From an uncultured Candidatus Saccharibacteria bacterium (GTDB lineage: Bacteria > Patescibacteriota > Minisyncoccia > UBA6257 > GWB1-50-10), in the NCBI GenBank assembly GCA_964495575.1, contig CAZBVS010000002.1, forward strand, positions 1 through 51,374: a DNA stretch of 51,374 nt, read 5' to 3'. Under the pieces are notes generated by a model, which had not been told where the DNA came from, searched no databases, and saw only the letters and a program-made list of their open reading frames with translations. A program made the position numbers and the translations under genes. The first letter of the stretch is position 1; each line of letters opens with the position of its first letter. Below, piece by piece: positions 9,683-51,374 of this stretch.

Positions 9683-9697
9683 CTTAAACACAATAAA

Positions 9698-10273: not shown

Positions 10274-10396
10274 AGCTTATACCTCCTTTTATTTAATTAC
10301 CAAGTACTAATCTGATAATAACATTAATTTATAAAAGGTCAACAAAACAGTTTATTTTTTCTCAATTTATGATAGAATAGGTTCTGTAAAAGAGAA

Positions 10397-15036: not shown

Positions 15037-15039
15037 AAT

Positions 15040-15738: not shown

Positions 15739-15775
15739 TTTCAAACTAAATATTTTTTTGCTAACATAAACAAAT

Positions 15776-16315: not shown

Positions 16316-16319
16316 ATCT

Positions 16320-17252: not shown

Positions 17253-17267
17253 TAAATAAATATAAAC

Positions 17268-18314: not shown

Positions 18315-18337
18315 AAAATTTATTAGATGTTTTTTAA

Positions 18338-18361
18338 GCCACCTCCGGGTGGCTTTTTTTA
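18338..18361 (+). terminator. intrinsic terminator after mraY
   Basis: GCCACC-TCCG-GGTGGC hairpin followed by T8. Confidence 0.8.
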
Positions 18362-18426
18362 TATCCACAAAACATAAAAATTAAATATCCTTTATAATAT
18401 AAATACAATCAAAATAAAATAATCTT

Positions 18427-21011: not shown

Positions 21012-21012
21012 A

Positions 21013-22116
21013 ATGATTAAATACTTAAATAACATAGATATTAAAAAATATATAAATAAAACTGCTTTTCTAAGAATCGACCTTAACGCAAAAGAAGGAG
21101 AAGAAGAAAACTTCTTTAGACTTCAAAGGGTGATCCCTACGATCAAAAAATTAATTGAAAACCAATCTCCAGTTATCATCGCTGCTCACCGAGGCAGATA
21201 CAACGAAAACCCTCCTTCTAACAAACCATTCCAAAAAATAATCCAAGAAAAGATAAAAGAAAAAGTGGCCTTCATCAAAGAAACCCAACCTGATCAAATA
21301 AAAGAAAAAATAAAAGAAAAGAAAACTTCGGTAATTCTTCTTGAAAACCTAAGGATGAATAAGAAGGAACAAGAAAACGACACAAAATATGCTGAAAAAC
21401 TCTCTCAATTAGCCCAATTTTATATAAATGACGCATTCCCCGTATGTCACCGAAAAAACGCCTCAGTAACTAAAATAACCCACTTTTTACCTTCATTTGG
21501 AGGTTTAGGACTCCAAAAAGAGATCGAAAAACTTACAAAATTCAAGAAAAACCCAAAACCACCCTTTACCCTAATAATCGGTGGTAAAAAAACCAAAAGC
21601 AAATTAGCCACCATAAAGAACCTCTGGAATAAAATAGATAATCTTCTTCTCGGAGGAGGACCAGCTAATACCTTTCTTTTTCAAAGAGGAGTGGATATCA
21701 AAAACTCGATATATGATAAAAATTCAGTCAAAAAAATAAAACCTTTCTCAATGGCTGATAAAACCTTTGTCCCGGTTGATTACAAAACCTCTGATGGTAA
21801 AATTCTTGATATTGGGGAAGAAACATCCAGAATATACACAGACATAATAAAAGAATCAAAAACAATAATCTGGAACGGTCCTATGGGACTTTTCGAAAAA
21901 GAAAAATTTGAAAAAGGAACTAAGAAAATTTGGAATGCTATTATTAATAACCAAAAAGCCAACACTGTTATCGGAGGCGGAGAAACTGTTAATTCAAAAA
22001 AATTAACCGATAAAGACATCCCCAAAAACATATTTCTTTCCACGGGCGGTGGCGCTATGCTAACCTTTTTAGCAAATAAAAAAATGCCGGGAATAAACGC
22101 ACTAAAAAATGAATAA
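21013..22116 (+). CDS. pgk: phosphoglycerate kinase (compact, divergent)
   Basis: RIDLNA, AHRGR and NLRMNKKE..YINDAFPVCHRKNAS align with the E. coli NVRFNKGE..VMDAFGTAHRAQAS. C-terminal GGGE and STGGGAMLTFL. Confidence 0.85.
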   Translation: MIKYLNNIDIKKYINKTAFLRIDLNAKEGEEENFFRLQRVIPTIKKLIENQSPVIIAAHRGRYNENPPSNKPFQKIIQEKIKEKVAFIKETQPDQIKEKIKEKKTSVILLENLRMNKKEQENDTKYAEKLSQLAQFYINDAFPVCHRKNASVTKITHFLPSFGGLGLQKEIEKLTKFKKNPKPPFTLIIGGKKTKSKLATIKNLWNKIDNLLLGGGPANTFLFQRGVDIKNSIYDKNSVKKIKPFSMADKTFVPVDYKTSDGKILDIGEETSRIYTDIIKESKTIIWNGPMGLFEKEKFEKGTKKIWNAIINNQKANTVIGGGETVNSKKLTDKDIPKNIFLSTGGGAMLTFLANKKMPGINALKNE

Positions 22117-22942
22117 AAAAATAACAATTGTATATCACAAAAACTGCGCTGACGGTTTTTCCGGAGCCTGGACGGCCTGGAAAAAGTTAAAAAATAAAGC
22201 TGAGTACATTCCTTGTGACGACCGAAATAAAAACTTAGACATAAAAAACAAAGATAAGGTATACCTTATAGACTTTATATTCTATAAACCAGTCCTTAAA
22301 AAACTAATTAAAGACAACAAACAGGTAATAGTAATCGATCATCACAAAACTGCTCAAGAAAGGGCCCAACTTGCTAACACCACTATATATAATAAAGAAA
22401 AATCAGGATCAGTCCTTGCCTGGGAATATTTCTTTCCAGAAAAAGATCTACCTCAAGCCCTAAAATACATAGAAGATGTTGATCTCTGGAACTGGAACCT
22501 AAAACACACCAAAGAAATATTTGCGATCATCGACTCAACAGAACACGATTTTAAGGAATGGAACAAACTAATTAAAAAAATTGAGAACAAAAAATCAAGA
22601 AAAAAGATAATTAAGAAAGGAAAGGTAATTGTTAACTCAGAAAACGAAATCATCGATCGTATTGTATCAAAAAAATACTTAATAAACCTAGACGGCCACG
22701 AAGTTTTTGCTGTAAACTCTCCCGTCTTTAAATCAGAAATAGGACATATCCTTTCTATGAAACACCCTCCTTTCGGAATTATCTGGCATCAATCTAAAGA
22801 AGGGATCAAGGTATCATTAAGAGCTAATGATACAATTGATGTATCAGAAATAGCCCAAAAACACGGTGGAGGTGGACACCCAAACGCAGCCGGATTTTTA
22901 ATCAAAAATAACCAATCAAAACCATGGAAAAAAATAAAATAA
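22109..22942 (+). CDS. DHH/DHHA1-family phosphoesterase (NrnA-like)
   Basis: HKNCADGFSGAW, the DHH motif VIVIDHHKT, and the DHHA1 motif GGGGHPNAAGF. Overlaps pgk by 8 nt. Confidence 0.8.
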   Translation: MNKKITIVYHKNCADGFSGAWTAWKKLKNKAEYIPCDDRNKNLDIKNKDKVYLIDFIFYKPVLKKLIKDNKQVIVIDHHKTAQERAQLANTTIYNKEKSGSVLAWEYFFPEKDLPQALKYIEDVDLWNWNLKHTKEIFAIIDSTEHDFKEWNKLIKKIENKKSRKKIIKKGKVIVNSENEIIDRIVSKKYLINLDGHEVFAVNSPVFKSEIGHILSMKHPPFGIIWHQSKEGIKVSLRANDTIDVSEIAQKHGGGGHPNAAGFLIKNNQSKPWKKIK

Positions 22943-23346
22943 AAATAAATACCGATGGAGGAGCAAGGGGAAACCCTGGACCCGCTGCTATAGGAGTAGT
23001 TATTAACCTAAATAACGAAGAAAAAACCTATAGCAAACCAATAGGAGAAACCACAAATAACGTTGCTGAATATCAAGCAATTATATTTTCTCTTAAAAAA
23101 TTAAAAAAACTAATTGGGAAAAAAGAATCAAAGAGTAGAGAAGTGGTAATAAATACCGACTCCGAATTAATAACAAAACAAATTAATCACGAATACAAAA
23201 TAAAAAACGAAGGTCTTAAAGAATATTTCATAGAACTCTGGAACCTGATGCTTGATTTTCAAAATGTAACCATCAAGCATATAAAAAGAGAAGAAAATAA
23301 AGAAGCTGATAAACTTGTAAATCAAGCTCTAGATACACTTATCTAA
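22924..23346 (+). CDS. rnhA: ribonuclease HI
   Basis: 140 aa. TDGGARGNPGPAAIG, NNVAEYQAI, TDSELI and NKEADKL supply the DEDD catalytic positions. Overlaps the DHH gene by 19 nt. Confidence 0.88.
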   Translation: MEKNKIKINTDGGARGNPGPAAIGVVINLNNEEKTYSKPIGETTNNVAEYQAIIFSLKKLKKLIGKKESKSREVVINTDSELITKQINHEYKIKNEGLKEYFIELWNLMLDFQNVTIKHIKREENKEADKLVNQALDTLI

Positions 23347-25026: not shown

Positions 25027-25983
25027 TTATCCTAAATCACCCCCATGAAACTTCTCATGAACATCCTTCAATTTTTTATTCGTCACATGCGTATATATCT
25101 GAGTAGCGGTAATACTTTTATGACCTAAAAATTCCTGCACTGTACGCATATCAACCCCTTGAGATAATAAATTAGTAGCAAAAGAATGACGTAGTACATG
25201 AGGCGTTGTATTAGATGGTAACCCAGCCTTTAAAGCTGACTTCTTAACAATATTTTCAATAGAACGAACCGTTAATCTCCTGGAGGCATCACTTCTTTTT
25301 CTTAAATTAACAAACAAAGCCTCTGCATCATCTTCACCCCGCTTATCTAAATATTTTTTTAACCACTCAAGCGTACGTGGAGAAAAATATACTGTCCGAG
25401 CCCGACCTCCCTTACCAACAATACCTAACTCAAGATAGTCTTCATCTAAAAATGAATCTACCTGATCCCTGTCTAAACTAACAAGCTCTGAAACTCTCAT
25501 CCCGGTAGAAAACAAAACCTCAAGAATAGCCCGGTTCCTCAACCCTTTTAATCTACTTACATCCGGAACAGCAAACAAGCGCTTTAACTGTTCTAAGTCC
25601 AAAAACTGTACCTCTGTATCACCCTTATCTCTAGGTAACTCAATCTTCTCTGGAGGCATTGCTTGAATATCCCGACTTGCAAAATAGGCGAGTAGAGAAC
25701 GTAAAGCTATTAAGTATGAACTCTGAGTAGATCTTGAAAGAGTTCCCGATGAGTTCTTGGAAGTAGTTTTACGAGCTAAATAAATTCTATAATTCCAAAC
25801 ATGCTTAGGGGTAAGTTCATGAGGCTTAATATTAGATAAATCATTATTATCCAGCCAACCCAAAAACCTACTTAAAAAACGAGAATAGTTTTCTTGAGTT
25901 TTAGAAGATAATCCTTTTTCTACATCAATCCAGTCTAAATAATCATTTATATGCTGGGGAAGTGGTTTATCGCTTTTTTTCAT
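25027..25983 (-). CDS. tyrosine site-specific recombinase, XerC/XerD-like
   Basis: N-terminal SAM-like domain (YLDWIDVEKGLSSKTQENYSRFLSRFLGWL). Catalytic pattern GMRVSEL (R), HVLRHSFAT (HxxR), LGHKS and IYTHV (Tyr). Confidence 0.88.
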   Translation of the reverse strand: MKKSDKPLPQHINDYLDWIDVEKGLSSKTQENYSRFLSRFLGWLDNNDLSNIKPHELTPKHVWNYRIYLARKTTSKNSSGTLSRSTQSSYLIALRSLLAYFASRDIQAMPPEKIELPRDKGDTEVQFLDLEQLKRLFAVPDVSRLKGLRNRAILEVLFSTGMRVSELVSLDRDQVDSFLDEDYLELGIVGKGGRARTVYFSPRTLEWLKKYLDKRGEDDAEALFVNLRKRSDASRRLTVRSIENIVKKSALKAGLPSNTTPHVLRHSFATNLLSQGVDMRTVQEFLGHKSITATQIYTHVTNKKLKDVHEKFHGGDLG

Positions 25984-38964: not shown

Positions 38965-40044
38965 TTAATATGATGATTCAATTTTATTGCGTTCTATTAT
39001 AGCTAATGCTAGGGATGAAATCAACAAGTTCGAACCTCCATAGCTTACAAACGGAAGACTAATACCTATAACGGGCACCAGCCCAAGATTCGAACCAATA
39101 TTTATAAAAAAGTGTATTAAAAATATCAATCCCATTCCCAACACAACAAACTTAAGGTCATTCCTTCTCAACCTCAAGCCGACAATAGTCATTCTAAGTA
39201 TAAGACCAAGATATGTCAAGACCAAAACCAATCCTCCAAACACTCCCCACTCCTCTACAAAAGAAGCAAACAAAAAATCAGTATGGGCCTCCGGCAAAAA
39301 ATCAAACTGAACCTGAGTTCCTCCTTTAAAGCCTTTACCCCAAAAACCAGCAGATCCAATAGCAATCTTTGATTGTGTAACATTATAATTCACCCCTAAA
39401 GGATCTGCTTCTGGAGACAAAAATCCCAATATCCTTTCTTTTTGGTACGGCTTTAAAAAGCTAGTCCACATCACTGCTAAAATAATAAACACTACCAACA
39501 CTCCTATCAAAAATCTCTTCTTATTAATTCCGCTCATCAAAATAAAACCAACCCATATCCCCATCACCACAATAGCAGAACCGAGATCAGGCTGCACAGC
39601 AATAATCCCTACCGGGACAATGGTATAAAAAAATGAAACAAATATATTCTTACTCTGCCAAGCAGCTAAATACTTTCTCGAGAAAAAACCTGCTAATAAA
39701 ATTATTAAACTTATCTTCACTAACTCTGACGGCTGAAAATTAATAAAACCTAAGCTAATCCACGACTCTGTCCCTCTCACTACTCCCGGCTGTAAAAAAG
39801 GAACCGCTAACAATACAATACTAGACCAATAAAAACCATGCCGAAACCAATCCTGAGTTATCAACCAACCCCATTTTATCTGACTCCCCAATAAAATCAC
39901 TAAAAACGAAATAACATACCAAATAGCCTGGCGAGAAAAATAAGTTTTATTAATACTGTATAAGGTTACCAAACTAATACAGGCTAGTATTACTACCAGC
40001 CCCAACAAAACCCAATCAAATTTTTTATAATCATTTAAACTCAT
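38965..40044 (-). CDS. rodA: SEDS-family peptidoglycan glycosyltransferase RodA
   Basis: 359 aa, polytopic. QPSELVKI, LPEAHTDFLFASFVEEWG and SLPFVSYGGS motifs. Second SEDS paralog in the window. Confidence 0.85.
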   Translation of the reverse strand: MSLNDYKKFDWVLLGLVVILACISLVTLYSINKTYFSRQAIWYVISFLVILLGSQIKWGWLITQDWFRHGFYWSSIVLLAVPFLQPGVVRGTESWISLGFINFQPSELVKISLIILLAGFFSRKYLAAWQSKNIFVSFFYTIVPVGIIAVQPDLGSAIVVMGIWVGFILMSGINKKRFLIGVLVVFIILAVMWTSFLKPYQKERILGFLSPEADPLGVNYNVTQSKIAIGSAGFWGKGFKGGTQVQFDFLPEAHTDFLFASFVEEWGVFGGLVLVLTYLGLILRMTIVGLRLRRNDLKFVVLGMGLIFLIHFFINIGSNLGLVPVIGISLPFVSYGGSNLLISSLALAIIERNKIESSY

Positions 40045-40749
40045 TTACTCCAAGTTTATATAAACCTCAGTACTCGTAGCGTTAACATTTTCCTTTACTT
40101 CTTGATTAACTGGAACAAAAATTTCAAAATTCCTATCTTCAAAAGAAGGGATATCCTCTAAAACTGTTTTAGCCCCCGACAACCTAAAACCGTATTCATC
40201 AGCTAAAACTGCAATTAACTCTAACCTCGGAACAGAAACAAAACTCTCATTCCTTACACTACCAGAAACTACCGCCCTGTCTTCTTCTAAAGAGGTATTA
40301 ATATTTTTTACTAATAACTTTTCCCTGATTGAACCAACTGCTTTTTTATACCCTCCATCTTCAACAACAAACTCAACATCACTAACCTTTCCATCAAACG
40401 ATGTTGTTTCAATTAAATACTCTTCTGAAGAGGGAGCTAACCTCTCATCACCAAAAACCTCTTTTTCAACAGATCCTCCTGACTTAATATCAAAACGATA
40501 GGAAAAGTAAGCTGTTTTCTCTAAATTAGTATTTTTTACCTGAACTAAAAATGATACTCTCTCAGGATCCAATCGAAAAATTTCTACATCATCTACAATC
40601 TTCACTTCAAAATCAGTCTCTTCTTCTTCAACAGACTTAGAATTCTTTTTATTAAAATCAAATGATATTAAAAATATCAAACCAGCTAAAAAAGCCAAAA
40701 ACACAAACCCATATACAATTTGTTTTAATCTACGTGACATTATATTCAT
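40045..40749 (-). CDS. membrane-anchored hypothetical protein
   Basis: 234 aa. One N-terminal TM (IVYGFVFLAFLAGLIFLISF), then an acidic, apparently beta-rich ectodomain. Its stop abuts the rodA start. Confidence 0.55.
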   Translation of the reverse strand: MNIMSRRLKQIVYGFVFLAFLAGLIFLISFDFNKKNSKSVEEEETDFEVKIVDDVEIFRLDPERVSFLVQVKNTNLEKTAYFSYRFDIKSGGSVEKEVFGDERLAPSSEEYLIETTSFDGKVSDVEFVVEDGGYKKAVGSIREKLLVKNINTSLEEDRAVVSGSVRNESFVSVPRLELIAVLADEYGFRLSGAKTVLEDIPSFEDRNFEIFVPVNQEVKENVNATSTEVYINLE

Positions 40750-40784: not shown

Positions 40785-41525
40785 TTAAGCTGCATCAATT
40801 ATTTTTAAAAACTCATCTGCTTCAAGACTAGCCCTTCCAACTAACACTCCGTTAATTTCTTTTGTTCTCAAAAACTTACCGGCGTTATCTCCATTAATTG
40901 ACCCCCCATACAAAACAGGGGTACCTCCATTTAAATCATTGATCTTTAAATACTTTTTAATGAATGAAATCATCTCCAAAACATCATCTACTGATGCAGG
41001 TCCTTTACTCTGAGTACTTATCGCCCAAATTGGTTCATAAGCTATCATTAAAGAATCATCATCTATAGAAACTCCCTCTAATCCTTTTTCCAGCTCTCCA
41101 GACACAAATCTCTTTGCTACATCCACTCCTTTATTTCTCATATTCTCCGGCTCCCCTACACAAAGAACTACCTTTAAATCATTTTCCAAAACCTGCTTAA
41201 CCTTTTTATTCACCTCCTCATCACTCTCTCCCAACCCTCTTCTTTCAGAGTGGCCTATAATAACAAATTCAACCCCTAAAGATTTTAGCTCATCAACTGA
41301 AACCTCTCCTGTATGACTACCTTCATCTTCCCAAAAAACATCCTGAGCCCCTAACATTACTGAAGAATCACTAACAACATCACTGACATCACTCAAAAAA
41401 ACTAACGGAGGAGCAACACCAACGACATTCTTACCAGACCTCTCAACAATTTTTTTCGCTAAGCCAACTGCCTCCTCTTTTTCTTGAGGATTCATCTTCC
41501 AATTTCCTAAAATTATTTTCTCCAT
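40785..41525 (-). CDS. tpiA: triosephosphate isomerase
   Basis: GNWKMN, IGHSERR, AYEPIWAIST and YGGSIN motifs. Confidence 0.95.
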   Translation of the reverse strand: MEKIILGNWKMNPQEKEEAVGLAKKIVERSGKNVVGVAPPLVFLSDVSDVVSDSSVMLGAQDVFWEDEGSHTGEVSVDELKSLGVEFVIIGHSERRGLGESDEEVNKKVKQVLENDLKVVLCVGEPENMRNKGVDVAKRFVSGELEKGLEGVSIDDDSLMIAYEPIWAISTQSKGPASVDDVLEMISFIKKYLKINDLNGGTPVLYGGSINGDNAGKFLRTKEINGVLVGRASLEADEFLKIIDAA

Positions 41526-42157
41526 ATCTTTTTAATTAAATTATTAAACCCGTGTGATATAAGATGTCTCCAAACACAACCATAATTAGAAAATCCTAAC
41601 TTCAAACCATCTTCGTTATCCAATACCTTAACTGAATACCCTCTTAAAACTCCCATCACCCAAGCCTTAGAAAAATTAAATAAAGAAACTTCTTCTAAAA
41701 CGCTAGGATCAAAATATGCTAACCCAAGATTAGAAACAACTCTTATCTCCGGTTTAATCTTTAAAACTTTCCTTAAAACCTGAGTAATCTTCTCCAAAAA
41801 ATGCCTCTTCTCTTCTCTCATGAAACCCATATCAAAATCATCTTTAGAAACATCTATCATTTCCTCAAAATCGTTAAAAGATACATCATTAAAATCATTA
41901 ACAACCAGAACTCTTTCTCCAGAAATATTCGATAAAATATTTTCTTCGCTAACCTCTAAAACAGACGGTAAAAAATCATCAAAGCTATCAACTGTCTTCC
42001 CAATATCTAACGAGCCATCGTCTACCACTAAAATCTCATACGAACTATATCTCAACTTTGATAGATAGCTATCTACATCCACCAAATCTAACACAACCTC
42101 TTCCCTACTTCTCCCTAATCCTGAGATTAATATTGATAAAGAGTATTCTTTAGACAT
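41513..42157 (-). CDS. hypothetical protein with a degenerate glycosyltransferase family 2 (GT-A)-like N-terminus
   Basis: SILISGLGRSREEV...YEILVVDDGSLD resembles the GT2 signature (xIVIPxxNE...YEIIVVDDGSTD). No clear DxD motif. Overlaps the tpiA start by 13 nt. Confidence 0.4.
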   Translation of the reverse strand: MSKEYSLSILISGLGRSREEVVLDLVDVDSYLSKLRYSSYEILVVDDGSLDIGKTVDSFDDFLPSVLEVSEENILSNISGERVLVVNDFNDVSFNDFEEMIDVSKDDFDMGFMREEKRHFLEKITQVLRKVLKIKPEIRVVSNLGLAYFDPSVLEEVSLFNFSKAWVMGVLRGYSVKVLDNEDGLKLGFSNYGCVWRHLISHGFNNLIKKIWRK

Positions 42158-42160
42158 AAA

Positions 42161-44518
42161 TTACTCCATTAAACGTTTGGTAATATCTTTCTCTACTTCT
42201 TCCCGAGGTCTTCCATACTTTTTCTCAAGTAAACTCTTCAACTCATCCCTTGAGTTAATATCCGGTCCTGGAGCAGGAAAAGCGTGCATATTAAATGGAT
42301 CTGTAGTTTCTCCATTTATCAACAACTTTACATACAAGTTATAATTATCAATATTTATTAAATCTCTCTCAGATACTTTGGGTTCAAACTGCTTTGCTAA
42401 AAACTCAGCATCCTGAGCGCTTACCCTAAATGACAACATGGAACCTACATTACCAAAAACAGAGTCTCTTATCTCTTCTGGAAGTTGAGCAATAAACTGA
42501 TGAGCTACCGTCAAACTCAACTTATACTTTCTAGCTTCTGACAAAATCGTAGAAATGGAATCTGTAGTAAAGTTCTGAAACTCATCAATAAACAAATTAA
42601 AGTCTCTTCTTTTTTCTTCATCAACATCAGCCCTTCCTAAAGCAGCCATCATAATCTTACCCACCACAATCATCCCCAATAAATTAGCGTTCAACTCCCC
42701 TATCTTACCTTTTGAGAGATTAACTAACAAAATCTTTCCTGAATCCATCGCTTTTCTAAAATTAAAACTTGATTCTTTCTGACCAACAATAACCCTCATA
42801 TAATCATTGGCAATAAAGTTATTAAACTTAGAGGTTACATACGGTGTAATATTTTCTAAGGAAGCCTCTCCCCCAGCCTTCTCAGCCTGTTTCCTCCAAA
42901 AGTTTATAACTGTAGCATTATTTATCCTGTTTAACTTCTTATTCCTATACTCACTATCAGAAAACACTCTAGGCACCTCCATTAAAGTAGCTGGTTCATT
43001 TGGAGCATCTTCCATCAACAATAACAAAGCATTTCTCATATATTGTTCAAACGCCGGCCCACCAGTTCTTTTCAAGTCATACAACTTATCCAGTATTCCA
43101 ATCATCTCATTGACAATAAAGGTTTTCTGTTCTGGTCTATCAAAATCATACTCCAGCATATTCAACCCCATCGGCCTTTTTAAAGAGGTTGGATCAAACA
43201 AAATTACATCATCATATCTTTCCTTAGGTATTAACCCTAAAATATGCTCCACTGCATCACCATGAGGATCTAAAAACGCAATCCCCTTTCCATCCTGGAT
43301 ATCCTGGTTAATCAAGGAAACCAAAAAATTAGTCTTACCTGTCCCGGTCTGCCCTATGACATAAAAATGACGTCTTCTATCTTCATCAGATATATAAACT
43401 TTTTTCTCCTGACCTTGAAATATATTCTCTCCCAATAAAGTACCTTGCCCAGGAATAGACGCCGGCATCGGTAACTGTTTAGATTTTAAATATTTAATTT
43501 TAGGCGTTTTTGTAAAAGGGGTTGGCAGATGAAAAACGCTTGCAAGTTCTTCTGAGTTTAAGATTAAACTCTTTTTACTATCAAAATTTCTAAAAGAAAA
43601 ATCATGAGCTATCTGTTTTACATTTCTTACTTTTCTTAAACTCAAATCATTTTTCTCCGGAGAAGCAAACTGAGAAAAACCAGATGATATACCATCATAT
43701 ATTGACTCTGCCTTAAAAGTACTTGGCCCGGAAGCCAACACTCTTATATTAACCTTAAAAAATGGTTTTTGGAGTTTTGATTTTACCGCCTCGACCAAAC
43801 TATCATCAACTGTCCTATCCTTCATCTTCTCTTTATCTTTTTCTTCTTTCCCTAAAAACTTATCCCATATCTCAAAAATTAATAGCCTAGAATTACCAGC
43901 TCCAGATAATCCCTTCCCTTCCTTCAAGTCCTTTAAAACGGCCTTGGCTTTCTTTTTCTTTGAAGAACCCGCTGGTTTGATAATAACTTGAACGACCCCT
44001 CCTTCTCCAACATCATCTATCTTTGCTAAACCACCTAACACAGACTGAAAGGTATCTGCTTCTAAATCAGCGTATGTTCTAATAGGAATTACATAATCTT
44101 CAGAACAACCCACATACCCTCCTACCGTCGTACCATCATGATGAAACACATTATAATCATCCACCTCCTCAACTAAAGCATCGTTCCAAATTCCCTGCAC
44201 CTGCCTTACAAAAGACTCCGCTAAACTAACCGGCACCGAGGCATAAAAACAAATCTCTCTTCCGACATGAGAAACAGCCGTTTCAAAAACTACCGGCTTA
44301 TTAAACTTACTCAAACTACTAAAAAGTTGCTCACTCTTATTAATCTCACTACTCAAATCATTTCCTTCCTCACTCCCTTTCGGTAACTGAATTAAAAACA
44401 ACTTTGTGTCTAAACCTCTAACTATTTTTTTTCTCCTCCAACGAATAAAAAGGATTGTTCCAACAATCCCTCCACCAATTAACAAAAAAGCAATTATTAA
44501 AGTAACTAAAAAAGACAT
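42161..44518 (-). CDS. membrane-anchored P-loop ATPase of the FtsK/HerA/VirD4 (DUF87 / T4SS coupling protein-like) superfamily
   Basis: 785 aa. N-terminal TM. About 370 aa of unrecognised domain. Walker A VIGQTGTGKTN, AFLDPHGD, Walker B NLFIDEFQNF, and SEARKYKLSLTVAHQFIAQL. Confidence 0.75.
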   Translation of the reverse strand: MSFLVTLIIAFLLIGGGIVGTILFIRWRRKKIVRGLDTKLFLIQLPKGSEEGNDLSSEINKSEQLFSSLSKFNKPVVFETAVSHVGREICFYASVPVSLAESFVRQVQGIWNDALVEEVDDYNVFHHDGTTVGGYVGCSEDYVIPIRTYADLEADTFQSVLGGLAKIDDVGEGGVVQVIIKPAGSSKKKKAKAVLKDLKEGKGLSGAGNSRLLIFEIWDKFLGKEEKDKEKMKDRTVDDSLVEAVKSKLQKPFFKVNIRVLASGPSTFKAESIYDGISSGFSQFASPEKNDLSLRKVRNVKQIAHDFSFRNFDSKKSLILNSEELASVFHLPTPFTKTPKIKYLKSKQLPMPASIPGQGTLLGENIFQGQEKKVYISDEDRRRHFYVIGQTGTGKTNFLVSLINQDIQDGKGIAFLDPHGDAVEHILGLIPKERYDDVILFDPTSLKRPMGLNMLEYDFDRPEQKTFIVNEMIGILDKLYDLKRTGGPAFEQYMRNALLLLMEDAPNEPATLMEVPRVFSDSEYRNKKLNRINNATVINFWRKQAEKAGGEASLENITPYVTSKFNNFIANDYMRVIVGQKESSFNFRKAMDSGKILLVNLSKGKIGELNANLLGMIVVGKIMMAALGRADVDEEKRRDFNLFIDEFQNFTTDSISTILSEARKYKLSLTVAHQFIAQLPEEIRDSVFGNVGSMLSFRVSAQDAEFLAKQFEPKVSERDLINIDNYNLYVKLLINGETTDPFNMHAFPAPGPDINSRDELKSLLEKKYGRPREEVEKDITKRLME

Positions 44519-44520
44519 GA

Positions 44521-44955
44521 TTATAAAATTCCTTTTTCTTTTAATTTAGGAAGAAGCTTATCAACTAAAGAATCATGAAAAGCGTCCTGAACAAAAGGAG
44601 GGAATTTTTTTGATCTTCTTAACGCTACAAACACTCCCTTATCAACCGCTAACTGAAGTAAAGATTCAATAACCTCTTTAGTTTGATCACTTACTTCTTC
44701 CTCTTCAAGATAATCTGCTAAATACTCATCTTCTTCAGAAGACGGTTCTTCCATTTTTTTCTTTATTTCTTCATCAGCCAACTCACTTACTGACTGCTTA
44801 ACAATCTCCTTGTCTTTATCCAAAACCTGAGAAGCTTTCTCTTTATCTTCAAATTTAGACTCGACTCTTTCCTTAACCTCCTGAACCTTCTTCTCTACCC
44901 TCTCTACATCCTTCTTCACTTTTTCACTTTGATGAAATTTATCTATATTCTTCAT
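44521..44955 (-). CDS. acidic coiled-coil protein, hypothetical
   Basis: 144 aa, Lys/Glu-rich, no TM helix. Its stop is 2 nt from the ATPase start. Confidence 0.5.
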   Translation of the reverse strand: MKNIDKFHQSEKVKKDVERVEKKVQEVKERVESKFEDKEKASQVLDKDKEIVKQSVSELADEEIKKKMEEPSSEEDEYLADYLEEEEVSDQTKEVIESLLQLAVDKGVFVALRRSKKFPPFVQDAFHDSLVDKLLPKLKEKGIL

Positions 44956-44993
44956 ATATTTATATTATATAACTACTCATCAATTATCACCAA

Positions 44994-46274
44994 CTAAAAT
45001 CCCTCTATCTTTATCTCTCCTAAATCTGAATAATCTACGTCTGTGGAGCTTGAAAAGGAATCTGTATAATCAGTCACCGGGCCATCCAACCCTTCTCCAC
45101 CTGACCAATCAGACTGGGTAAACACATCATTCTTCCATCTTGTAATATATTCAGACAACGAGAAGTTTGTTTCTTCTTCTTTGCCCGGCCACTCAATAAC
45201 AGCAGTAACCTTCTGAGTCAAAGGGTCCAACGCCTCTCCCGCCCCGCAAGGAGAAACTCCGCCAATTTCATAGTTAGCGTCATTAGTTCTACATACGTTC
45301 TCGACATAAAAATATCTATCAAACATTGTTGAATCATACAAACTTTCAACCTCATTAGATGTTAACGCTCTACTATATATCCTTACATCATCCAAATAAC
45401 CATCAAAAGGATTGCTTCCTGCGATACTACCAAAATACAAATTATTACCAGAAGAATTTACTGCTTCTGCACTACCACCAGTCGATACCACTTTACCATC
45501 AACATATGCAGTTGACCCTGAATTTTCATCATGAATATACGAAAAATGATGCCATTGTTCTGTAGAAACATCAGAATAATTTAAAACAGTAGCATTCCAT
45601 GACGCACCATCATAATAAGTAAATCTAATATCAGAACCTGAATCCCACATAACGTAAGAATTATTCTTATGCAAAAACCTTTGACTAGAACCCCAAGCTT
45701 TAGGATAAATCCATAAACTAATAGTAAAACTTGATACATCCAAAACATTATCATCAGAAACTTCCACATAATCATCCGTTCCATCAAAGTCTAAACATCC
45801 CCCCACCCAACAAACGCTGGAAGTAGCTTGTAAAACCCCGTTATTCAAAACCCCATCATTATCATTTCCTGAAAAATCATAAACTGTACTCCCCGTTACA
45901 GAATCTAATTTCCAATGCCCCGCCAATCCTGACTGTATCCCATTATCAACAATCCCTTCCTTTCCTTCTAAATGAAAATTGTCCGTACTAGAAGAATGCA
46001 TAAAATACACGGTACTAGAAGTTTTATTTAATCCATAAACATTAGACCAATCAGAAAATGCATACACCCTCACATTCTCTACTAATCCTTGGGCTAACGC
46101 TGTCGCACTCTGTTGAATCTGGCTCGTTTTACTAGATTGTAAAACAACTACTATCGCCGTACTTGCCCCTCCAATTAAAATAGCTCCTATCGCCAAAGCA
46201 ATCACAATCTCAACCAAAGATTGACCTTCTTGCTTTAAAAATAAACTCTTTATTTTTTTTAAAAATAACTTCAT
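44994..46274 (-). CDS. type IV pilin-like protein with a LamG/concanavalin-A-like lectin domain
   Basis: Class III signal MKLFLKKIKSLFLKQEG|QSLVEIVIALAIGAILIG (Gly -1, Glu +5). LamG-type segment CLDFDGTDDYVEV..FTISLWIYPK..GYLDDVRIYSRALTSNEV. Confidence 0.8.
   Translation of the reverse strand: MKLFLKKIKSLFLKQEGQSLVEIVIALAIGAILIGGASTAIVVVLQSSKTSQIQQSATALAQGLVENVRVYAFSDWSNVYGLNKTSSTVYFMHSSSTDNFHLEGKEGIVDNGIQSGLAGHWKLDSVTGSTVYDFSGNDNDGVLNNGVLQATSSVCWVGGCLDFDGTDDYVEVSDDNVLDVSSFTISLWIYPKAWGSSQRFLHKNNSYVMWDSGSDIRFTYYDGASWNATVLNYSDVSTEQWHHFSYIHDENSGSTAYVDGKVVSTGGSAEAVNSSGNNLYFGSIAGSNPFDGYLDDVRIYSRALTSNEVESLYDSTMFDRYFYVENVCRTNDANYEIGGVSPCGAGEALDPLTQKVTAVIEWPGKEEETNFSLSEYITRWKNDVFTQSDWSGGEGLDGPVTDYTDSFSSSTDVDYSDLGEIKIEGF
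45763..45803. repeat. nucleotide-identity island shared with 46736-46776 (35/35 identical, 40/41 overall)
   Basis: TCCACATAATCATCCGTTCCATCAAAGTCTAAACA is identical in both LamG-pilin genes. It encodes (G)CLDFDGTDDYVEV on the minus strand. Confidence 0.9.
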
Positions 46275-46275
46275 A

Positions 46276-47379
46276 TTATTTCAAATCATCATAATGAGCT
46301 TGAATTGTACTCGAAGATAAAACTGTATTATACACTCGAACCTCATCTATTCTTCCATTATGTAATCCTGCACTCTTTTCCCAACCTCTTGAACCAATAA
46401 CTAACTCTCTAGCCCCCAATTTCATATCCCCCGTTAAAGAACCACTTGCTACTTCTTCTCCATCTACATAAAGCTTTACATATCCCCCATTTATTCCATT
46501 TGTCACAAACGCTAAATGATACCACTGATTAATATTAATAGAAGCATAAATTGCTTCACCAACATTACTAGCACCATCATAAACTTGAGCCCTTAAAGAG
46601 CCATCATAATGAATAAACTGCCATTGATCATCACTTGAATTATCACGTTTATTTAATAACCAATTATCACCTAAACCATCAAATCTTACCCAGGCTTCAA
46701 CAGTAAGCTCACCAGTGTTATTCAAAGAATTAACCTCCACATAATCATCCGTTCCATCAAAGTCTAAACACCCCCCTGATTTACAATCGTTCCCCGACAA
46801 CCAACTAACTCCACTTATCAACTCACCATCATTTCCTTCCCCAGAAGCATCTAAAGTACTTGTTCCTACTCCTTCATCAAAATGCCAATAACCTACAACA
46901 TCATCTACCATTCTTCTTGTTACTCTACCCAAAGAATTTACAAGCACGTCCCCAGCCTGATCATTCTCATTCTCATGAGTTAAGGTAATAATCTTTCTTT
47001 CATTTAACTTACCTGTCCTGGAATCAAAAATCATATCATACGTCCTTCCTCCTGAAGGCTCAGAAAACCTTACTGGTCTTCGAAACTTTTTGCTAGTTTC
47101 GACAGTACTAGAAGAATACGTACTTCCTTTAAATAGCTCGTACCCATCCTCTCCTGTACTTGAACTATTAAACCTCACTCCCCATCCGCTACCCCCTTCC
47201 TGAACTACTGATCTATTTTGAGCACTTTTCACAACTGAGAAAACTTCATCAACTGCAAACTCCAAATCTTTTCTTTCTTTATAATTAGAATACGTCAAAA
47301 AACTACCGGTCGCTAAAACAACACCGATAGCCATAACTACAATAAACTCTATTAAAGTAAACCCATCTTGTTTTCTCAT
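46276..47379 (-). CDS. type IV pilin-like protein with a LamG/concanavalin-A-like lectin domain (paralog)
   Basis: Class III signal MRKQDG|FTLIEFIVVMAIGVVLATG. LamG-type segment CLDFDGTDDYVEV..LTVEAWVRFD..GRIDEVRVYNTVLSSSTI. Confidence 0.82.
   Translation of the reverse strand: MRKQDGFTLIEFIVVMAIGVVLATGSFLTYSNYKERKDLEFAVDEVFSVVKSAQNRSVVQEGGSGWGVRFNSSSTGEDGYELFKGSTYSSSTVETSKKFRRPVRFSEPSGGRTYDMIFDSRTGKLNERKIITLTHENENDQAGDVLVNSLGRVTRRMVDDVVGYWHFDEGVGTSTLDASGEGNDGELISGVSWLSGNDCKSGGCLDFDGTDDYVEVNSLNNTGELTVEAWVRFDGLGDNWLLNKRDNSSDDQWQFIHYDGSLRAQVYDGASNVGEAIYASININQWYHLAFVTNGINGGYVKLYVDGEEVASGSLTGDMKLGARELVIGSRGWEKSAGLHNGRIDEVRVYNTVLSSSTIQAHYDDLK
46736..46776. repeat. second copy of the nucleotide-identity island (see 45763-45803)
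   Basis: Same 35-mer, then one mismatch, then five further identical bases. Confidence 0.9.
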
Positions 47380-47384
47380 ACCTT

Positions 47385-48608
47385 TTAAAACTGAGTAGTC
47401 AACTGATAAATAGGAATGATAATAGACAAAGCAATTGTACCAATTACAAACCCGATAATAAGAAGCAATAACGGTTCTAGCAACGCAACAAGCCTCTTTA
47501 TCGAATTATCAACCTCTGTAATATAAAAATCTGCTAAGGTCCCTAAAATATTTTCAAGATGACCTGCTTGTTCAGCAATCGCGATTAAGTTTACCATTAC
47601 GTTTGGGAAAAATGGCTCTCTTCTAAAGGCTTCTCCCAATGTTAATCCCTTAGCCAAACCTTCTTTATTTATTCTCTCTAAAGCATCCTTTAACTCTACA
47701 TGCCCTGCTGCATTAGCAGTAATATTTAACACTTTATTTATCGGAATCCCTGCTTTAATCAAATTAGAGGAAGTGGAAGCAAATCTTTGTAACGCTCTTT
47801 TTTTAACAATTTCTTTTACTACTGGAATATCAGTAATAATATTCCAAACTACTTTTTGAACAAACAAAGATTTTTTATATGCCATAATAAATCCAACAAT
47901 AGCTCCTACCAACCCTCCTATCACCAAATACCAAATTTTTCCAAAGAATAACCCTACCGAAAAAACAATTTTAGAAAACAATGGCGGCTCAAAACCACTT
48001 TCCATAAACACACTTGCAATCTTTGGTAAAGCAAAAGTAACCAAAAATACTAATATTAAAACAGAAATACCAAGCAACAACACGGGATAAATCAAAGCAT
48101 TTTTAATCTTATCCTTTAACTCTTTTTCCTTATTCAAAGAAGAAGTAATATTCTGAAAAACTTGATGTAAATTCCCTGAAACCTCTCCCGCTCTTATTAA
48201 ATTAACATGAACATCGCTAAACACCTTTGGATAATTTTCAAAAGTAGAATAAAACGGAGCCCCTTTCTCTAAATTAGATCTAACCTCCATCAAGAAATCC
48301 CTTACCGCCGGCTTCTCAAAATCTTCGATAAGAATATTAATTGCCTTTAACAAGTTAGTACCAATACCAAGCATCAAAGACAAATACCGAAAAATAAATA
48401 TCTGATCTTCCATCTCTATCTTCCCTTTCCCAAAAAGATGGATTTCTTTTTTCATACCTCCTTTACCACCCTTAACAGGCTCTACACTCAAAGGCTTCAT
48501 ATTCTTGGCAGTAAGGTAGCTCAAAACATCAGAGGTTTCATTAGCCTCTACGTTTCCTTCTACTACCTCCCCGTTAGGTTTTGATGCTGTGTAATGATAT
48601 CTTGCCAT
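47385..48608 (-). CDS. pilC: type IV pilus / T2SS platform protein (GspF/PilC family)
   Basis: 407 aa. Two GspF-type repeats (LIRAGEVSGNL.., AIAEQAGHLENIL..) with three TM segments. Directly downstream of pilB. Confidence 0.9.
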   Translation of the reverse strand: MARYHYTASKPNGEVVEGNVEANETSDVLSYLTAKNMKPLSVEPVKGGKGGMKKEIHLFGKGKIEMEDQIFIFRYLSLMLGIGTNLLKAINILIEDFEKPAVRDFLMEVRSNLEKGAPFYSTFENYPKVFSDVHVNLIRAGEVSGNLHQVFQNITSSLNKEKELKDKIKNALIYPVLLLGISVLILVFLVTFALPKIASVFMESGFEPPLFSKIVFSVGLFFGKIWYLVIGGLVGAIVGFIMAYKKSLFVQKVVWNIITDIPVVKEIVKKRALQRFASTSSNLIKAGIPINKVLNITANAAGHVELKDALERINKEGLAKGLTLGEAFRREPFFPNVMVNLIAIAEQAGHLENILGTLADFYITEVDNSIKRLVALLEPLLLLIIGFVIGTIALSIIIPIYQLTTQF

Positions 48609-48634
48609 ATTACTATTATTATATACTAAAACCT

Positions 48635-50347
48635 TTACTCCCTAATAACCCTAAACACCTCTTCAACAGTAGTCATCCCCTGCTCAATCTTTTTTAAGCC
48701 ATCCTCAAACATGCTAATCATCCCGTGTTCTCTTGCTAAATCTTGCAAATCATCAAGGTTAAAGTCCTCACTATTTATAAACTTCCTTATCTCCTCATTT
48801 ATCTCCATTATCTCAAAAATACCAACTCGCCCTTTGTAACCCAAACCACTACAAGCCTCACAACCCTCTCCTTTATAGAACTTTTTAGGAATCTCTACCT
48901 CATCTTTCGGAATTTCAAGTCGTTCTAACTGATCCTTAATCGAGTTTATCACTGAATCTTCAGGTGTATACTCTTTTTTACACCTTGGACAAACCTTACG
49001 AACCAAACGCTGGGCGGTCACAAGATTCAAAACAGCCGAAACCAAGAACCTCTTCACGTTCATATCAATTAAACGAGGTACGGTGGTTGGGGCATCATTG
49101 GTATGCAAGCTGGATAGCACCAAATGACCTGTTAACGCAGACTGAACTGCAATTCCTGCTGTCTCAGAATCACGAATCTCACCTACCATAATAATGTTTG
49201 GGTCCTGACGTAAAATAGACCTTAAACCATTTGCAAAAGTAAGATCAGCTGCTGGATTTACCTGCATCTGATTAATATATCTCATATCGTACTCAATTGG
49301 ATCCTCAACAGTCACAATGTTAACCTCTGGTTGATTCAAGATATTCATAATAGAATACAACGTAGTCGTCTTACCAGAACCGGTAGGACCACACACAAGA
49401 ATCATTCCATAGCTTGTACTGATCGCATCCTTAACCATCTCTCTTGTTTGTTTAAACATCCCTAACTCCTTCAGAGAAAGTGGCTTCTGAGCCGCGTCTA
49501 ATAAACGAAGCTCTACCTTCTCACCATAGAAGGTAGGAATAACTGAAACACGAACATCAATCTCTTTATCTCCTAAATCATGACGAAATCTTCCATCTTG
49601 AGGTTTAGAATGTTCATCAATCCTTAACCCTGATAAAATCTTTATCCTTGCTACCACTGCTGGATGAATCTCCTTTGGCATCCTAACTATCTCGTGCAAA
49701 ATACCATCAATCCTAAACCTTACCAACACTATATCCTCTAATATCTCAAAATGAACATCAGAAGCTCGAGAAGAAACAGCGTAAGCAAGAAGATTATCAA
49801 CAATTGCAACGATAGGAATATCTTCGGCTGCCTCCTCTACTCCCTGAGCTTTAGAGCGCAAAGACTCCTTAATACTTTCTTCGATAACCTCCTTGAAGTC
49901 CTCAGCCTGCTTCTGACCATACATCGTATACCCTTTATTCAGATCAGACTCTTCGGCCAAATACGCTCTAATAGGGGCGCCTAACTTAACCGAAAGAAAG
50001 TTTATGGCATCTAAGTCCGCCGGATTCTCCATCGCCACGTTATACGAACCATCATCATTCTTTCCAAAAACAATTGCTCTTCTCTGTCGAGCAACATTCT
50101 CCGGCAATAAATTCAAAACTTCCTCATTAATCTCAGTCTCCTGAAGATCAACCTGGGGAACATTTAAATACTGGGAAAGAAGATCATAAAACTTTCCTTC
50201 TTTAATAATTCCTCTAGATATCAAAACATCAGAAGGATTTTGTTTCCTTCTAATAGCATCTTTATATACGGAATCGAAGGTTTGTTCGTCAGTAAAACCT
50301 TCCCCAACTATTATTTGTTTAAGCTTTTGCTTTGAAAGATTTATCAT
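48635..50347 (-). CDS. pilB: type IV pilus assembly ATPase (GspE/PilB family)
   Basis: 570 aa. N-terminal T2SSE_N-like domain. Walker A GPTGSGKTT. Asp box and His box (LTGHLVLSSLHTNDA). Tetracysteine motif CPRC..CEAC. Confidence 0.93.
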   Translation of the reverse strand: MINLSKQKLKQIIVGEGFTDEQTFDSVYKDAIRRKQNPSDVLISRGIIKEGKFYDLLSQYLNVPQVDLQETEINEEVLNLLPENVARQRRAIVFGKNDDGSYNVAMENPADLDAINFLSVKLGAPIRAYLAEESDLNKGYTMYGQKQAEDFKEVIEESIKESLRSKAQGVEEAAEDIPIVAIVDNLLAYAVSSRASDVHFEILEDIVLVRFRIDGILHEIVRMPKEIHPAVVARIKILSGLRIDEHSKPQDGRFRHDLGDKEIDVRVSVIPTFYGEKVELRLLDAAQKPLSLKELGMFKQTREMVKDAISTSYGMILVCGPTGSGKTTTLYSIMNILNQPEVNIVTVEDPIEYDMRYINQMQVNPAADLTFANGLRSILRQDPNIIMVGEIRDSETAGIAVQSALTGHLVLSSLHTNDAPTTVPRLIDMNVKRFLVSAVLNLVTAQRLVRKVCPRCKKEYTPEDSVINSIKDQLERLEIPKDEVEIPKKFYKGEGCEACSGLGYKGRVGIFEIMEINEEIRKFINSEDFNLDDLQDLAREHGMISMFEDGLKKIEQGMTTVEEVFRVIRE

Positions 50348-50349
50348 AT

Positions 50350-50916
50350 CTATATCACTATATTAATAAGTATAACTAATATCCCCACTGGAAGCCACAA
50401 TGAATAAAGTGGCATCCTTTCTTTAATCCCAAAAAACTTCTCTCTCACAAATGAAATACTCAAAGAAATCACCGCCATTAACAATAGATACCAAACCCAA
50501 CCCCAATACCAATTAGGATTCCCTAACAGAAATATTGATAAAGCAGCAAAATAAGGTTCCTCATTTTCAAAAAATCTAAACCCTTTCTTTCTGTTAAACT
50601 TCTTAGAAAGATACAAAAACAAAATCGCAACTCCAAAGGAAATTAAATAGTACAAACCAAAACGAATAAAGTGATGATTCAATAAGTAAAAAATATTTTC
50701 ATACGGTGGTAAAAAATAAACAAAAGGAGTTCCATTAGTTTTCCAAATAAAATACTGGGCCACGGTTAGAAACACATAATACAGAAAAACCATCCCAGAT
50801 GATCCAAAAAACAAAAACTTAACCCAGAACTCAGATCTAGCACTGGACCTTTCCCAAAATACTTGAATAACTAATCCTAATAAAAAAATTCCCAAACTCA
50901 AATAAATAGCACTCAT
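50350..50916 (-). CDS. polytopic membrane protein, hypothetical (occupies the slot where a prepilin peptidase is often found, but contains no aspartate)
   Basis: 188 aa, about 6 hydrophobic segments, Trp/Tyr-rich (NPNWYWGWVWYLL). Zero Asp residues, so it is not an A24 aspartic peptidase. Confidence 0.55.
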   Translation of the reverse strand: MSAIYLSLGIFLLGLVIQVFWERSSARSEFWVKFLFFGSSGMVFLYYVFLTVAQYFIWKTNGTPFVYFLPPYENIFYLLNHHFIRFGLYYLISFGVAILFLYLSKKFNRKKGFRFFENEEPYFAALSIFLLGNPNWYWGWVWYLLLMAVISLSISFVREKFFGIKERMPLYSLWLPVGILVILINIVI

Positions 50917-50932
50917 ATATATTATTATAACA

Positions 50933-50964
50933 ACAAATTAAAAACGGCTAAATAATTAGCCGTT
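50933..50964 (-). terminator. intrinsic terminator after the pilin gene
   Basis: On the minus strand: AACGGCTAA-TTAT-TTAGCCGTT followed by TTTTTAATTT. Confidence 0.7.
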
Positions 50965-50988
50965 TTCCACTAACTTAAAATCTCTTCT

Positions 50989-51374
50989 TTACCACAGATC
51001 TAAAGAAGGATCATTCCCTATCTCATACCAACCACTATCCTCTCCTCCATCAGTGCTCTCTACATCACTTCCTCCATCATTTGCATATCGGGTGCTCTCC
51101 ATCTTCGTCGCGATCTCATACTCCATACTATCATTAGCTTTATACGCATAAAACCAGTCAGTATCATTTACCGGATCAAGTGGTAATCGAGATAAAGGAG
51201 ACCCGCTAGAAATACTCGTAAAATCAATATTTACCCAACCACCACCATCTACAGCTGTAGAGGTCGTGACTGTAGTACAACTCCCAGAAGGAAGTGTACC
51301 ATCAGCTGTACACCTACTTGTGTTTGTAAAACTTGGACTATTAGTATCTGCTAAATACAATGCTATTGCGCTAT
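50989..51374 (-). CDS. C-terminal part of a probable secreted/pilin-type protein (5' end lies beyond the window)
   Basis: The frame is open to the right edge, and the ORF-track start at 51360 is an internal TTG. Ser/Thr/Gly/Asp-rich. First gene of the pil string, with its own terminator as for major pilin genes. The N-terminus is not visible. Confidence 0.4.
   Translation of the reverse strand, partial: SAIALYLADTNSPSFTNTSRCTADGTLPSGSCTTVTTSTAVDGGGWVNIDFTSISSGSPLSRLPLDPVNDTDWFYAYKANDSMEYEIATKMESTRYANDGGSDVESTDGGEDSGWYEIGNDPSLDLW

Follow-up and report, generated by a model that had tools for sequence, protein, structure and literature searches.

A coupling-protein-type ATPase and its small partner p144 beside a type IV pilus locus of an uncultured Candidatus Saccharibacteria bacterium

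Genes of the minus-strand string

The stretch of DNA considered here, hereafter the window, comprises 51,374 nucleotides (nt) of contig CAZBVS010000002.1 (GenBank assembly GCA_964495575.1, positions 1 to 51,374 of the forward strand) from an uncultured Candidatus Saccharibacteria bacterium (GTDB lineage Bacteria; Patescibacteriota; Minisyncoccia; UBA6257; GWB1-50-10). Nine minus-strand open reading frames (ORFs) lie across 41513-51374: the genes of a type IV pilus (T4P) are followed by those of p144, a small acidic protein, and of a 785-amino-acid (aa) ATPase related to the coupling proteins of type IV secretion systems (T4SSs), and lastly by a decayed glycosyltransferase gene. A preliminary description, drawn from the letters and the translated ORFs, had proposed that the string may be one hybrid pilus-plus-translocase apparatus. 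The ORF listing agrees with it on the nine genes, on their spacing (intergenic gaps of 1-72 nt) and on the 13-nt overlap of the last, 214-aa gene with tpiA (40785-41525). Promoter-like sites are not enriched in the region (34, against 32.6 in shuffled sequence), and an Rfam scan of the window returned two tRNAs only.

The string opens with the C-terminal fragment of a major pilin (50989-51374; ORF 50989-51360), whose frame is open at the window end. Its pilin nature is confirmed by phmmer matches to 178-199-aa N_methyl pilins that hold the same position in four related loci (L001, L084, L087 and L088). The pilin gene is followed by an intrinsic-terminator-like hairpin with a 12-bp stem and a T-run; this terminator had been noticed before, although it lies at 50940-50967 and not at 50933-50964. 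The next gene (50350-50916) encodes a 188-aa membrane protein with five hydrophobic segments, in keeping with its earlier designation as polytopic, for which there is no family in Pfam or NCBIfam and no meaningful match in PADLOC. Homologues lie between the pilin gene and pilB in L001/2, L084 and L087 and are absent at L088. The protein contains no aspartate, which rules it out as an A24 prepilin peptidase; no such peptidase occurs in the string or among the Pfam-scanned ORFs of the window, a few short ORFs being unscanned, and its gene may lie beyond the window.

The other pilus assignments made at first sight are confirmed by Pfam and NCBIfam. The 570-aa PilB-type extension ATPase (48635-50347) carries an MshEN N-terminal domain and matches T2SSE (9e-127) and TIGR02538 (8.5e-166), and its sequence contains CPRC and CEAC cysteine motifs. 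The 407-aa PilC/GspF platform protein (47385-48608) matches T2SSF (2.7e-51) and GspF (1e-82). Two modular minor prepilins follow, each with N_methyl and Laminin_G_3 matches: LamG1 (46276-47379, 367 aa; 3.5e-8 and 7e-26, respectively), with a G|FTLIE signal and a LamG/ConA-like lectin module, and LamG2 (44994-46274, 426 aa), with an atypical G|QSLVE signal and a LamG module. The string thus holds the components by which a T4P is recognised, namely PilB, PilC and prepilins bearing class III signals, and the pilus unit is a T4P locus of the ordinary Patescibacterial kind, whose minor pilins bear lectin modules. The remark that no VirB, PilT or PilM/N/O/Q gene is visible holds for the string, and PilT is missing from the window as a whole; a PilO-like gene of 186 aa is nevertheless present elsewhere in the window (8736-9296, plus strand; PF04350, E 5e-6), ~40 kb from the pil string. 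It is divergently paired with the competence gene dprA (8010-8732, minus strand; DNA_processg_A, 4e-75).

At the other end of the string, the 214-aa protein (41513-42157), earlier called GT-A-like, does align with intact GT2 orthologues, but its DAD motif and central region are missing, and it is therefore a degenerate GT2 remnant. It has no match in Pfam and no meaningful match in NCBIfam or PADLOC. The gene is the defunct vestige of an adjacent Gtr-type (GtrA/GT2/PMT_2) glycosylation cluster that is intact in relatives: GtrA-GT2-GalT is complete with PMT_2 in L001 and L085, and without PMT_2 in L086. In these relatives, the p144-ATPase pair sits inside an intact Gtr/Arn-like three-part surface-glycosylation set (L001, 7862-14834; L085, 7834-14778; L086, 12372-14802), with PMT_2 (GT-C) upstream on the opposite strand and GtrA, GT2 and GalT downstream. 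In L084 the GT2 gene is gone altogether, while the window keeps only its degenerate copy. Profile searches with the 144-, 188- and 214-aa proteins of the string, and with a 234-aa protein encoded nearby, gave no meaningful match, so that the description of the middle components as uncharacterised stands for the first three; the same searches with the 785-aa protein led to coupling-protein families.

The ATPase and its partner p144

Judged by its profiles, motifs and predicted fold, the 785-aa protein (42161-44518) is a coupling-protein (VirD4/TrwB-type) ATPase. The broader placement in the FtsK/HerA/VirD4 group was thereby borne out, and the likeness is specifically to coupling proteins: Pfam matches above cut-off are DUF87 (1e-8), T4SS-DNA_transf (7e-8), TrwB_AAD_bind and TraG-D_C. 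The chain consists of a transmembrane (TM) helix at residues 7-25, the only hydrophobic N-terminal helix, a DUF8128 domain at residues ~34-352 and a TrwB-like nucleotide-binding domain at residues ~355-785, into which the predicted model places an all-alpha insertion at residues ~463-578. The motifs reported earlier (VIGQTGTGKTN, AFLDPHGD, LFIDEFQNF and ARKYKLSLTVAHQ) are all present in the translation and fall on invariant columns of an alignment of 62 homologues that share 54-78% identity. Invariant in this alignment are Walker A (GQTGTGKT, residues 389-396; 43331-43354), Walker B (LFIDEF, residues 642-647; 42578-42595) and, individually, D645, E646, F647, Q648, N649, R663, K664, Y665, H673 and Q674, the last five of which belong to the ARKY (residues 662-665) and HQ (residues 673-674) motifs downstream of Walker B. 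The Walker A, Walker B and Arg-finger motifs of the motor are thus intact.

Structural comparison divides the protein into two halves of different affinity. With the full AlphaFold model (pLDDT 85) as query, the top Foldseek match in the PDB is TrwK/VirB4 of R388 (~900 columns, E 2e-15); the C-terminal half aligns with TrwB at a TMt of 0.63-0.67 over ~410 columns, with Cag-beta and HerA ranking afterwards, and TrwB is also the best match of the family profile among PDB sequences (5.7e-7). The N-terminal region (43463-44419), previously described as some 370 aa with no motif, does have a catalogued identity, Pfam DUF8128 (PF26449 in precomputed annotations of homologues), and a VirB4-N-terminal-like fold. 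Modelled alone with AlphaFold2 (residues 34-352, pLDDT 83), it matches TrwK/VirB4 chains in all 14 of 14 Foldseek PDB matches at E ≤ 1e-3 (best 2.5e-6, TMq ~0.5); on these predicted folds, DUF8128 is a VirB4-N-terminal-like domain. The whole protein does not reach the VirB4 sequence profile (TIGR00929, E 3e-5, 22 bits against a cut-off of 643) and has no AAA_10 or CagE_TrbE_VirB match in Pfam. HerA helicase was rejected as an identity: the equivalog model gives 21 bits against a cut-off of 970, the N-domain has the alpha/beta VirB4-like fold and no HAS-barrel, and the window contains no nuclease neighbour. FtsK/SpoIIIE was likewise rejected, PF01580 being below cut-off (E 0.012) and no gamma (KOPS-binding) domain being seen.

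Homologues number >5900, nearly all of ~785 aa and from Patescibacteria (Paceibacterota, Jorgensenbacteria, Brennerbacteria), and are annotated as 'DUF87' or 'type IV secretion system DNA-binding domain-containing protein'. A search with the DUF8128 domain gave 1042 clusters at 50% identity, and among the 150 listed most members are of 750-940 aa or are shorter fragments. A tblastn search of plasmids returned 639 records. The homologue on Bacillus licheniformis plasmid NZ_CP035190.1 is an 885-aa 'DUF87 domain-containing protein' (WP_128472464.1) without an N-terminal helix. Residues 88-752 of the window ATPase align with it at 26% identity over 699 columns (BLASTP, E 3e-46), and the N-domain profile aligns with its N-terminus (hhalign probability 97%, E 6e-11). 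Its gene is directly upstream of a Replic_Relax relaxase gene, and the same operon encodes a VirB4-like AAA_10 ATPase, other proteins of conjugal transfer and a cell-wall hydrolase. Since the homology spans both domains, the window ATPase is truly related to the conjugative coupling proteins of monoderms. The best plasmid match to the C-terminal domain is on a Bradyrhizobium plasmid (NZ_CP064708.1, 150073-152199, L090; 34% identity, E 9e-72). This 708-aa homologue has a different N-terminus, which is not DUF8128-like, so the domain is not universal among plasmid relatives; its neighbours are CHAT-domain and TPR proteins, with no conjugation genes. No p144 homologue was detected beside the plasmid homologues.

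The gene directly upstream of the ATPase encodes p144 (44521-44955), a soluble 144-aa protein with a pI of 5.0, in agreement with its earlier description as acidic; its family was delimited by a profile hidden Markov model (HMM) and an alignment. The HMM, built from the 26 upstream proteins of ~140 aa that were initially recognised, detects the family in 69 of the 83 loci searched. A separate p144 homologue lies directly upstream of the ATPase in 39 loci, and all 39 ATPases have a TM helix; in 37 loci the two form a single in-frame ORF of 888-971 aa, with the p144 homologue at the ATPase N-terminus, and all 37 lack the helix. Independent gene calls of 909-932 aa, with DUF8128 starting from ~residue 145, agree with the fusion. 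This split/fused pattern, in which p144 is the obligate partner of the ATPase, is strong evidence that the two function jointly. The helix-less fused forms also show that membrane anchoring, which had been taken as part of the translocase's description, is no requirement of a family in which about half of the members have no helix. The conserved part of p144 is a C-terminal helical module of ~55 aa, with invariant G107, D124 and L130 and a D-x-F-H-D motif. A 23-sequence profile against PDB sequences and member-by-member Pfam searches gave no significant match, the best being RecX (E 0.013). In five loci of Falkowbacteria or Komeilibacteria type (L038, L050, L051, L055 and L068), the gene at -1 of the ATPase belongs to a different family of ~165 aa, f45, which the p144 HMM does not recognise and which could be either a far-diverged p144 or a partner of analogous role.

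Gene neighbourhoods and pilus linkage

Whether the ATPase is bound to pilus genes was assessed in 80 GTDB species-representative loci and nine loci from exact-protein look-ups, with a search radius of 10 kb; 48 of the GTDB loci, those with ≥6 kb upstream of the ATPase, were assessable. Neither pilB nor pilC occurs within this radius in any of them (0/48), and an ORF with any prepilin-type motif does so in 9 of 83 loci. Linkage of the ATPase to pilB/pilC across Patescibacteria, which the reading as a single apparatus would lead one to expect, is thus found in a narrow clade only. Even there it is broken: pilB/pilC do not adjoin the ATPase in L003, L085, L086 and L089, the order in the first three being S16-KhpA-TrmD-S2-EF-Ts-x-LamG2-p14x-ATPase, while the ATPase of L089 is in an unrelated gene context. 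On contig_42607, ~17 kb of housekeeping genes stand between the pilB-pilC-LamG1 block and LamG2-p142-ATPase, and on contig_38233 the pilB/pilC block forms a separate locus 10-30 kb from the ATPase. Since the pil linkage is absent outside the narrow clade and broken within it, the local order is a lineage-specific synteny. A reciprocal PilC scan of metagenome contigs yielded four close loci, among them one long locus, L095, that keeps the window order, and is too shallow to measure breadth.

The separating block of contig_42607 (L086, L098) contains L33, PCMT, PGK, DHH/DHHA1, RNase H, GatB, RNase III, SMC and S16...EF-Ts. Genes of this block have counterparts in the window that lie 20-30 kb off on the other strand (PCMT 14034, PGK 21013, DHH 22109 and RNase H 22924, within 14034-23346), which points to a rearrangement whose breakpoint falls precisely between LamG1 and LamG2. 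Close to this breakpoint region, L003 (5265-6056) and L085 (5488-6279) each have a free-standing LAGLIDADG_3 homing-endonuclease gene just upstream of LamG2.

The sole constant neighbour of the p144-ATPase pair is LamG2, within the window's clade only; it lies immediately upstream of the p144 homologue in L003, L004, L010, L084-L088 and L095, and in L001 and L085 an opposite-strand PMT_2 gene stands between the two. The distant, fused-form relatives are mostly found among housekeeping genes, typically in the order S5-L15-SecY-Adk-Map-[ATPase]-Ndk-beta-CASP nuclease-SLOG or near dnaX. No relaxase or VirB-like gene was found among the scanned ORFs of the window, and none was identified within 10 kb in ~90 related loci, judged by Pfam labels or else by recurrent neighbour families only; VirB3, VirB6 and VirB8 do not adjoin the ATPase in the neighbourhoods examined. 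Some Nomurabacteria-type loci (L028, 4390-5880 and flanks; L030; L060; L062) carry, between SecY/Adk and Map, one to three members of a cysteine-rich (CxxC-repeat) protein family of ~580 aa that matches nothing in Pfam, and in L028 the ATPase C-terminal domain occurs a second time, in a truncated copy of 496 aa.

Further features of the window lie outside the string. The 234-aa protein mentioned above is a single-pass membrane protein encoded between tpiA and ftsW (40045-40749), with no match in Pfam, NCBIfam or PADLOC; its gene is kept in L001, L003, L004, L010, L084 and L088, displaced in L085 and L087, and not found in L086. Two FtsW/RodA-family paralogues (19893-21011 and 38965-40044) occur together with MraY, MurA, a D-Ala-D-Ala carboxypeptidase, YceG and an M23 peptidase, a dense cell-wall content for a reduced genome. 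The two tRNAs, tRNA-Ile(GAU) and tRNA-Ala(UGC), are ~790 nt apart within 9538-10470. This pair is usually found in rRNA spacers; the window contains no rRNA. Between them lies a minus-strand ORF of 191 aa with a weak DUF4407-like match below the Pfam cut-off.

Competing explanations and known systems

The reading that we find somewhat better than even is that the string consists of two independent units placed side by side by a lineage-specific juxtaposition, plus a decayed third. The first would be the T4P assembly locus, with the major pilin and its own terminator, the small membrane protein, PilB, PilC and the two LamG minor pilins. The second would be p144 and the type IV coupling protein (T4CP) ATPase, a core module probably inherited vertically across the Parcubacteria- and Paceibacteria-labelled genomes sampled. 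In this second unit, the ATPase may act as a putative hexameric, ATP-driven translocase or receptor for substrates at the inner face of the membrane, with p144 as a putative docking or regulatory subunit, by analogy with CagZ on Cag-beta. The ATPase would not be a pilus component; it would feed a channel encoded elsewhere, most likely a Patescibacterial T4SS of the monoderm type and, in second place, the ComEC competence channel. The T4SS is the most economical guess because of the ancestry of the ATPase and because genes for coupling proteins often lie far from virB4. For the ComEC option, the only hints are the genes of nucleotide metabolism that neighbour the ATPase in the fused clade and the local adjacency of the pilus genes.

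A survey of Patescibacteria provides the context for this module. It reports 5,713 VirD4-type homologues in 2,918 of 3,035 genomes (96%), of which 148 are near virB4, along with VirB4 in 2,417 of the 3,035 genomes and relaxases in 103 (Quinonero-Coronel et al., 2025; PMC12102498). Its authors consider the function unknown and do not exclude exaptation of the T4CP homologues (PMC12102498). The T4SS cluster of Southlakia has no recognisable coupling protein or relaxase (PMC10633639). The window ATPase family is almost certainly the same population as these orphan T4CP homologues. The family is therefore already catalogued, both as Pfam DUF8128 and in the survey; what appears to be new is that DUF8128 is VirB4-like and also occurs in a conjugative coupling protein of Bacillus, that the ATPase has a partner, p144, with a dichotomy of split (TM) and fused (no-TM) forms, and that its pil linkage is shown not to be conserved. 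The accessible text of the survey contains no description of a DUF8128/VirB4-like N-domain, of p144 and its fusion, of TM-helix loss or of gene contexts (PMC12102498). Literature searches found no mention of DUF8128, and nothing relevant on DUF87 with CPR and pili or on coupling proteins with PilB/PilC in Patescibacteria.

Several observations weigh against two separate units and against coupling to a T4SS. The genes are tightly packed on one strand in the window and in several relatives whose ATPases are 59-66% identical. In the window, the gaps are as short as 38 nt ahead of p144 and 2 nt ahead of the ATPase, and no terminator was detected after LamG2; the packing and the missing terminator make co-transcription of p144-ATPase with the pil genes plausible here. 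The order pilin-(188 aa)-PilB-PilC-LamG-LamG-p14x-ATPase is kept in L001/2, L084, L087 and L088, and L095, found via the PilC search, keeps it from PilC onward; the ATPase identity of these order-keeping relatives is 56-66% where known. LamG2 stays with p144-ATPase across the clade even where pilB/pilC have moved off. As for the T4SS, the counts of the survey leave at least ~500 Patescibacteria genomes with a T4CP homologue and without VirB4, and relaxases are nearly absent (PMC12102498). The t4cp homologue of Southlakia is reported there as non-essential, although the T4SS is essential (PMC12102498), so that exaptation is possible.

The packing, the recurring order and the constant place of LamG2 upstream of p144 in the clade are also arguments for a hybrid apparatus, as first proposed, in which DNA or a host cell would be captured or contacted by the T4P and the membrane-anchored ATPase, together with p144, would drive DNA or nucleotides across the membrane. 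To these may be added weak matches to the CedD and CedB HMMs, the dprA and PilO-like genes of the window, the nucleotide-related neighbours of the fused clade (Adk, Ndk, the beta-CASP nuclease and the SLOG protein) and the precedent of T4P working with VirB4/VirD4 elsewhere (PMC12857230). Nevertheless, such an apparatus seems unlikely in view of the neighbourhood survey: ATPase homologues are not syntenic with pil genes outside the narrow clade (0/48 species loci), the pilB/pilC block stands apart from the ATPase even inside it, relatives have a gene of opposite orientation between LamG2 and p144, and the membrane anchor is missing in half of the ATPase family. In addition, we know of no competence system that uses a coupling protein. 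A variant in which p144 and the DUF8128 ATPase form a Patescibacteria-wide, T4SS-independent motor that moves DNA across the membrane for nucleotide salvage or transformation, coupled physically to the pilus here via LamG2, is put forward as an improbable but distinct proposal.

Rather doubtful, too, is a housekeeping DNA motor independent of both T4SS and pilus, for example an FtsK substitute in segregation or repair, tethered or regulated by p144. The ATPase is near-universal and vertically inherited, its neighbours include ftsW, yceG, PBP2, dnaX and the ribosomal/SecY cluster, soluble fused forms exist, and T4CPs are related to FtsK/SpoIIIE (PMC12857230). Set against this are the sub-threshold FtsK_SpoIIIE match and the missing gamma/KOPS domain already described, a literature search on FtsK in Parcubacteria that found nothing relevant, and the dispensability of the Southlakia t4cp homologue reported in the survey (PMC12102498). 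It is very improbable that the ATPase is a relic of an integrated conjugative or mobilisable element, a leftover coupling protein of no current role. The closest homologue with a characterised context is on a conjugative plasmid, the neighbouring GT2 has decayed and the window has a tyrosine recombinase gene (25027-25983), but the catalytic motifs are all invariant in the 62 homologues, full-length orthologues exist in the thousands, their chromosomal housekeeping contexts are conserved, relaxase and VirB genes were not identified in the ~90 loci, and the base composition of the string is the same as that of the rest of the window. An anti-phage defence ATPase of the HerA or MADS mad8-like type can be dismissed almost entirely, since the PADLOC matches that suggest it (mad8, E 3e-14, and several HerA models) cover the generic P-loop core only, no locus has a nuclease, Sir2, methylase or other mad partner nearby, and core-gene conservation in fixed housekeeping synteny is unlike defence islands.

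Under the favoured reading of two independent units, the adjacency of the pilus genes, the apparent main lead, should not be relied on for the function of the ATPase. The question matters since Patescibacteria account for much of bacterial diversity and are reliant on hosts and imported building blocks, and a coupling ATPase present in nearly every one of their genomes, without a relaxase and rarely near a T4SS, represents an unexplained core function. The anatomy of the protein, with a VirB4-like N-domain joined to a TrwB-like motor, its "Rosetta stone" partner p144 and its soluble forms make the family experimentally approachable, and the alternatives for its role are concrete: substrate receptor of a T4SS or motor for DNA uptake.

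Among known systems, TrwB/VirD4 of R388 (PDB 1e9r/1gl6) shares the Walker A, Walker B and ARKY...HQ motifs and the C-terminal fold with the window ATPase. TrwB has two TM helices, whereas the window ATPase has one and the fused relatives none, and the window ATPase differs further in its extra N-domain of ~320 aa and in having no relaxosome or T4SS genes adjacent. TrwK/VirB4 of R388 (PDB 7o42, 8rtd) has the same two-domain layout and size of ~800 aa, but the window ATPase fails the VirB4 sequence profiles and is without VirB3, VirB6 or VirB8 neighbours. The Bacillus plasmid coupling protein resembles it in both the DUF8128-like N-domain and a P-loop motor with a helical insertion; its gene belongs to a conjugation operon with relaxase, VirB4, VirB6 and cell-wall hydrolase, whereas the window gene is a chromosomal core gene that lacks all of these and encodes an N-terminal TM helix beside a p144 partner. 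Cag-beta with CagZ (PDB 8dol) likewise combines a coupling ATPase with a small helical regulator, the likeness of p144 to CagZ being an analogy only. In PAPI-1 and the archaeal Ups/Ced systems, a pilus of the type IV class is encoded or works with a VirB4/VirD4-class ATPase (PMC12857230). However, these systems of DNA transfer belong to mobile elements or are inducible and include additional dedicated membrane parts, and the linkage in the window is not conserved and comes with no relaxase, VirB4 or Ced membrane protein; PAPI-1 itself sits on a mobile island with VirB4, while the window string has neither and retains a conserved chromosomal housekeeping synteny. Should the improbable motor coupled via LamG2 nonetheless prove real, it would be the bacterial counterpart of the pilus-plus-VirB4/VirD4 arrangement of archaeal Ups/Ced or PAPI-1.

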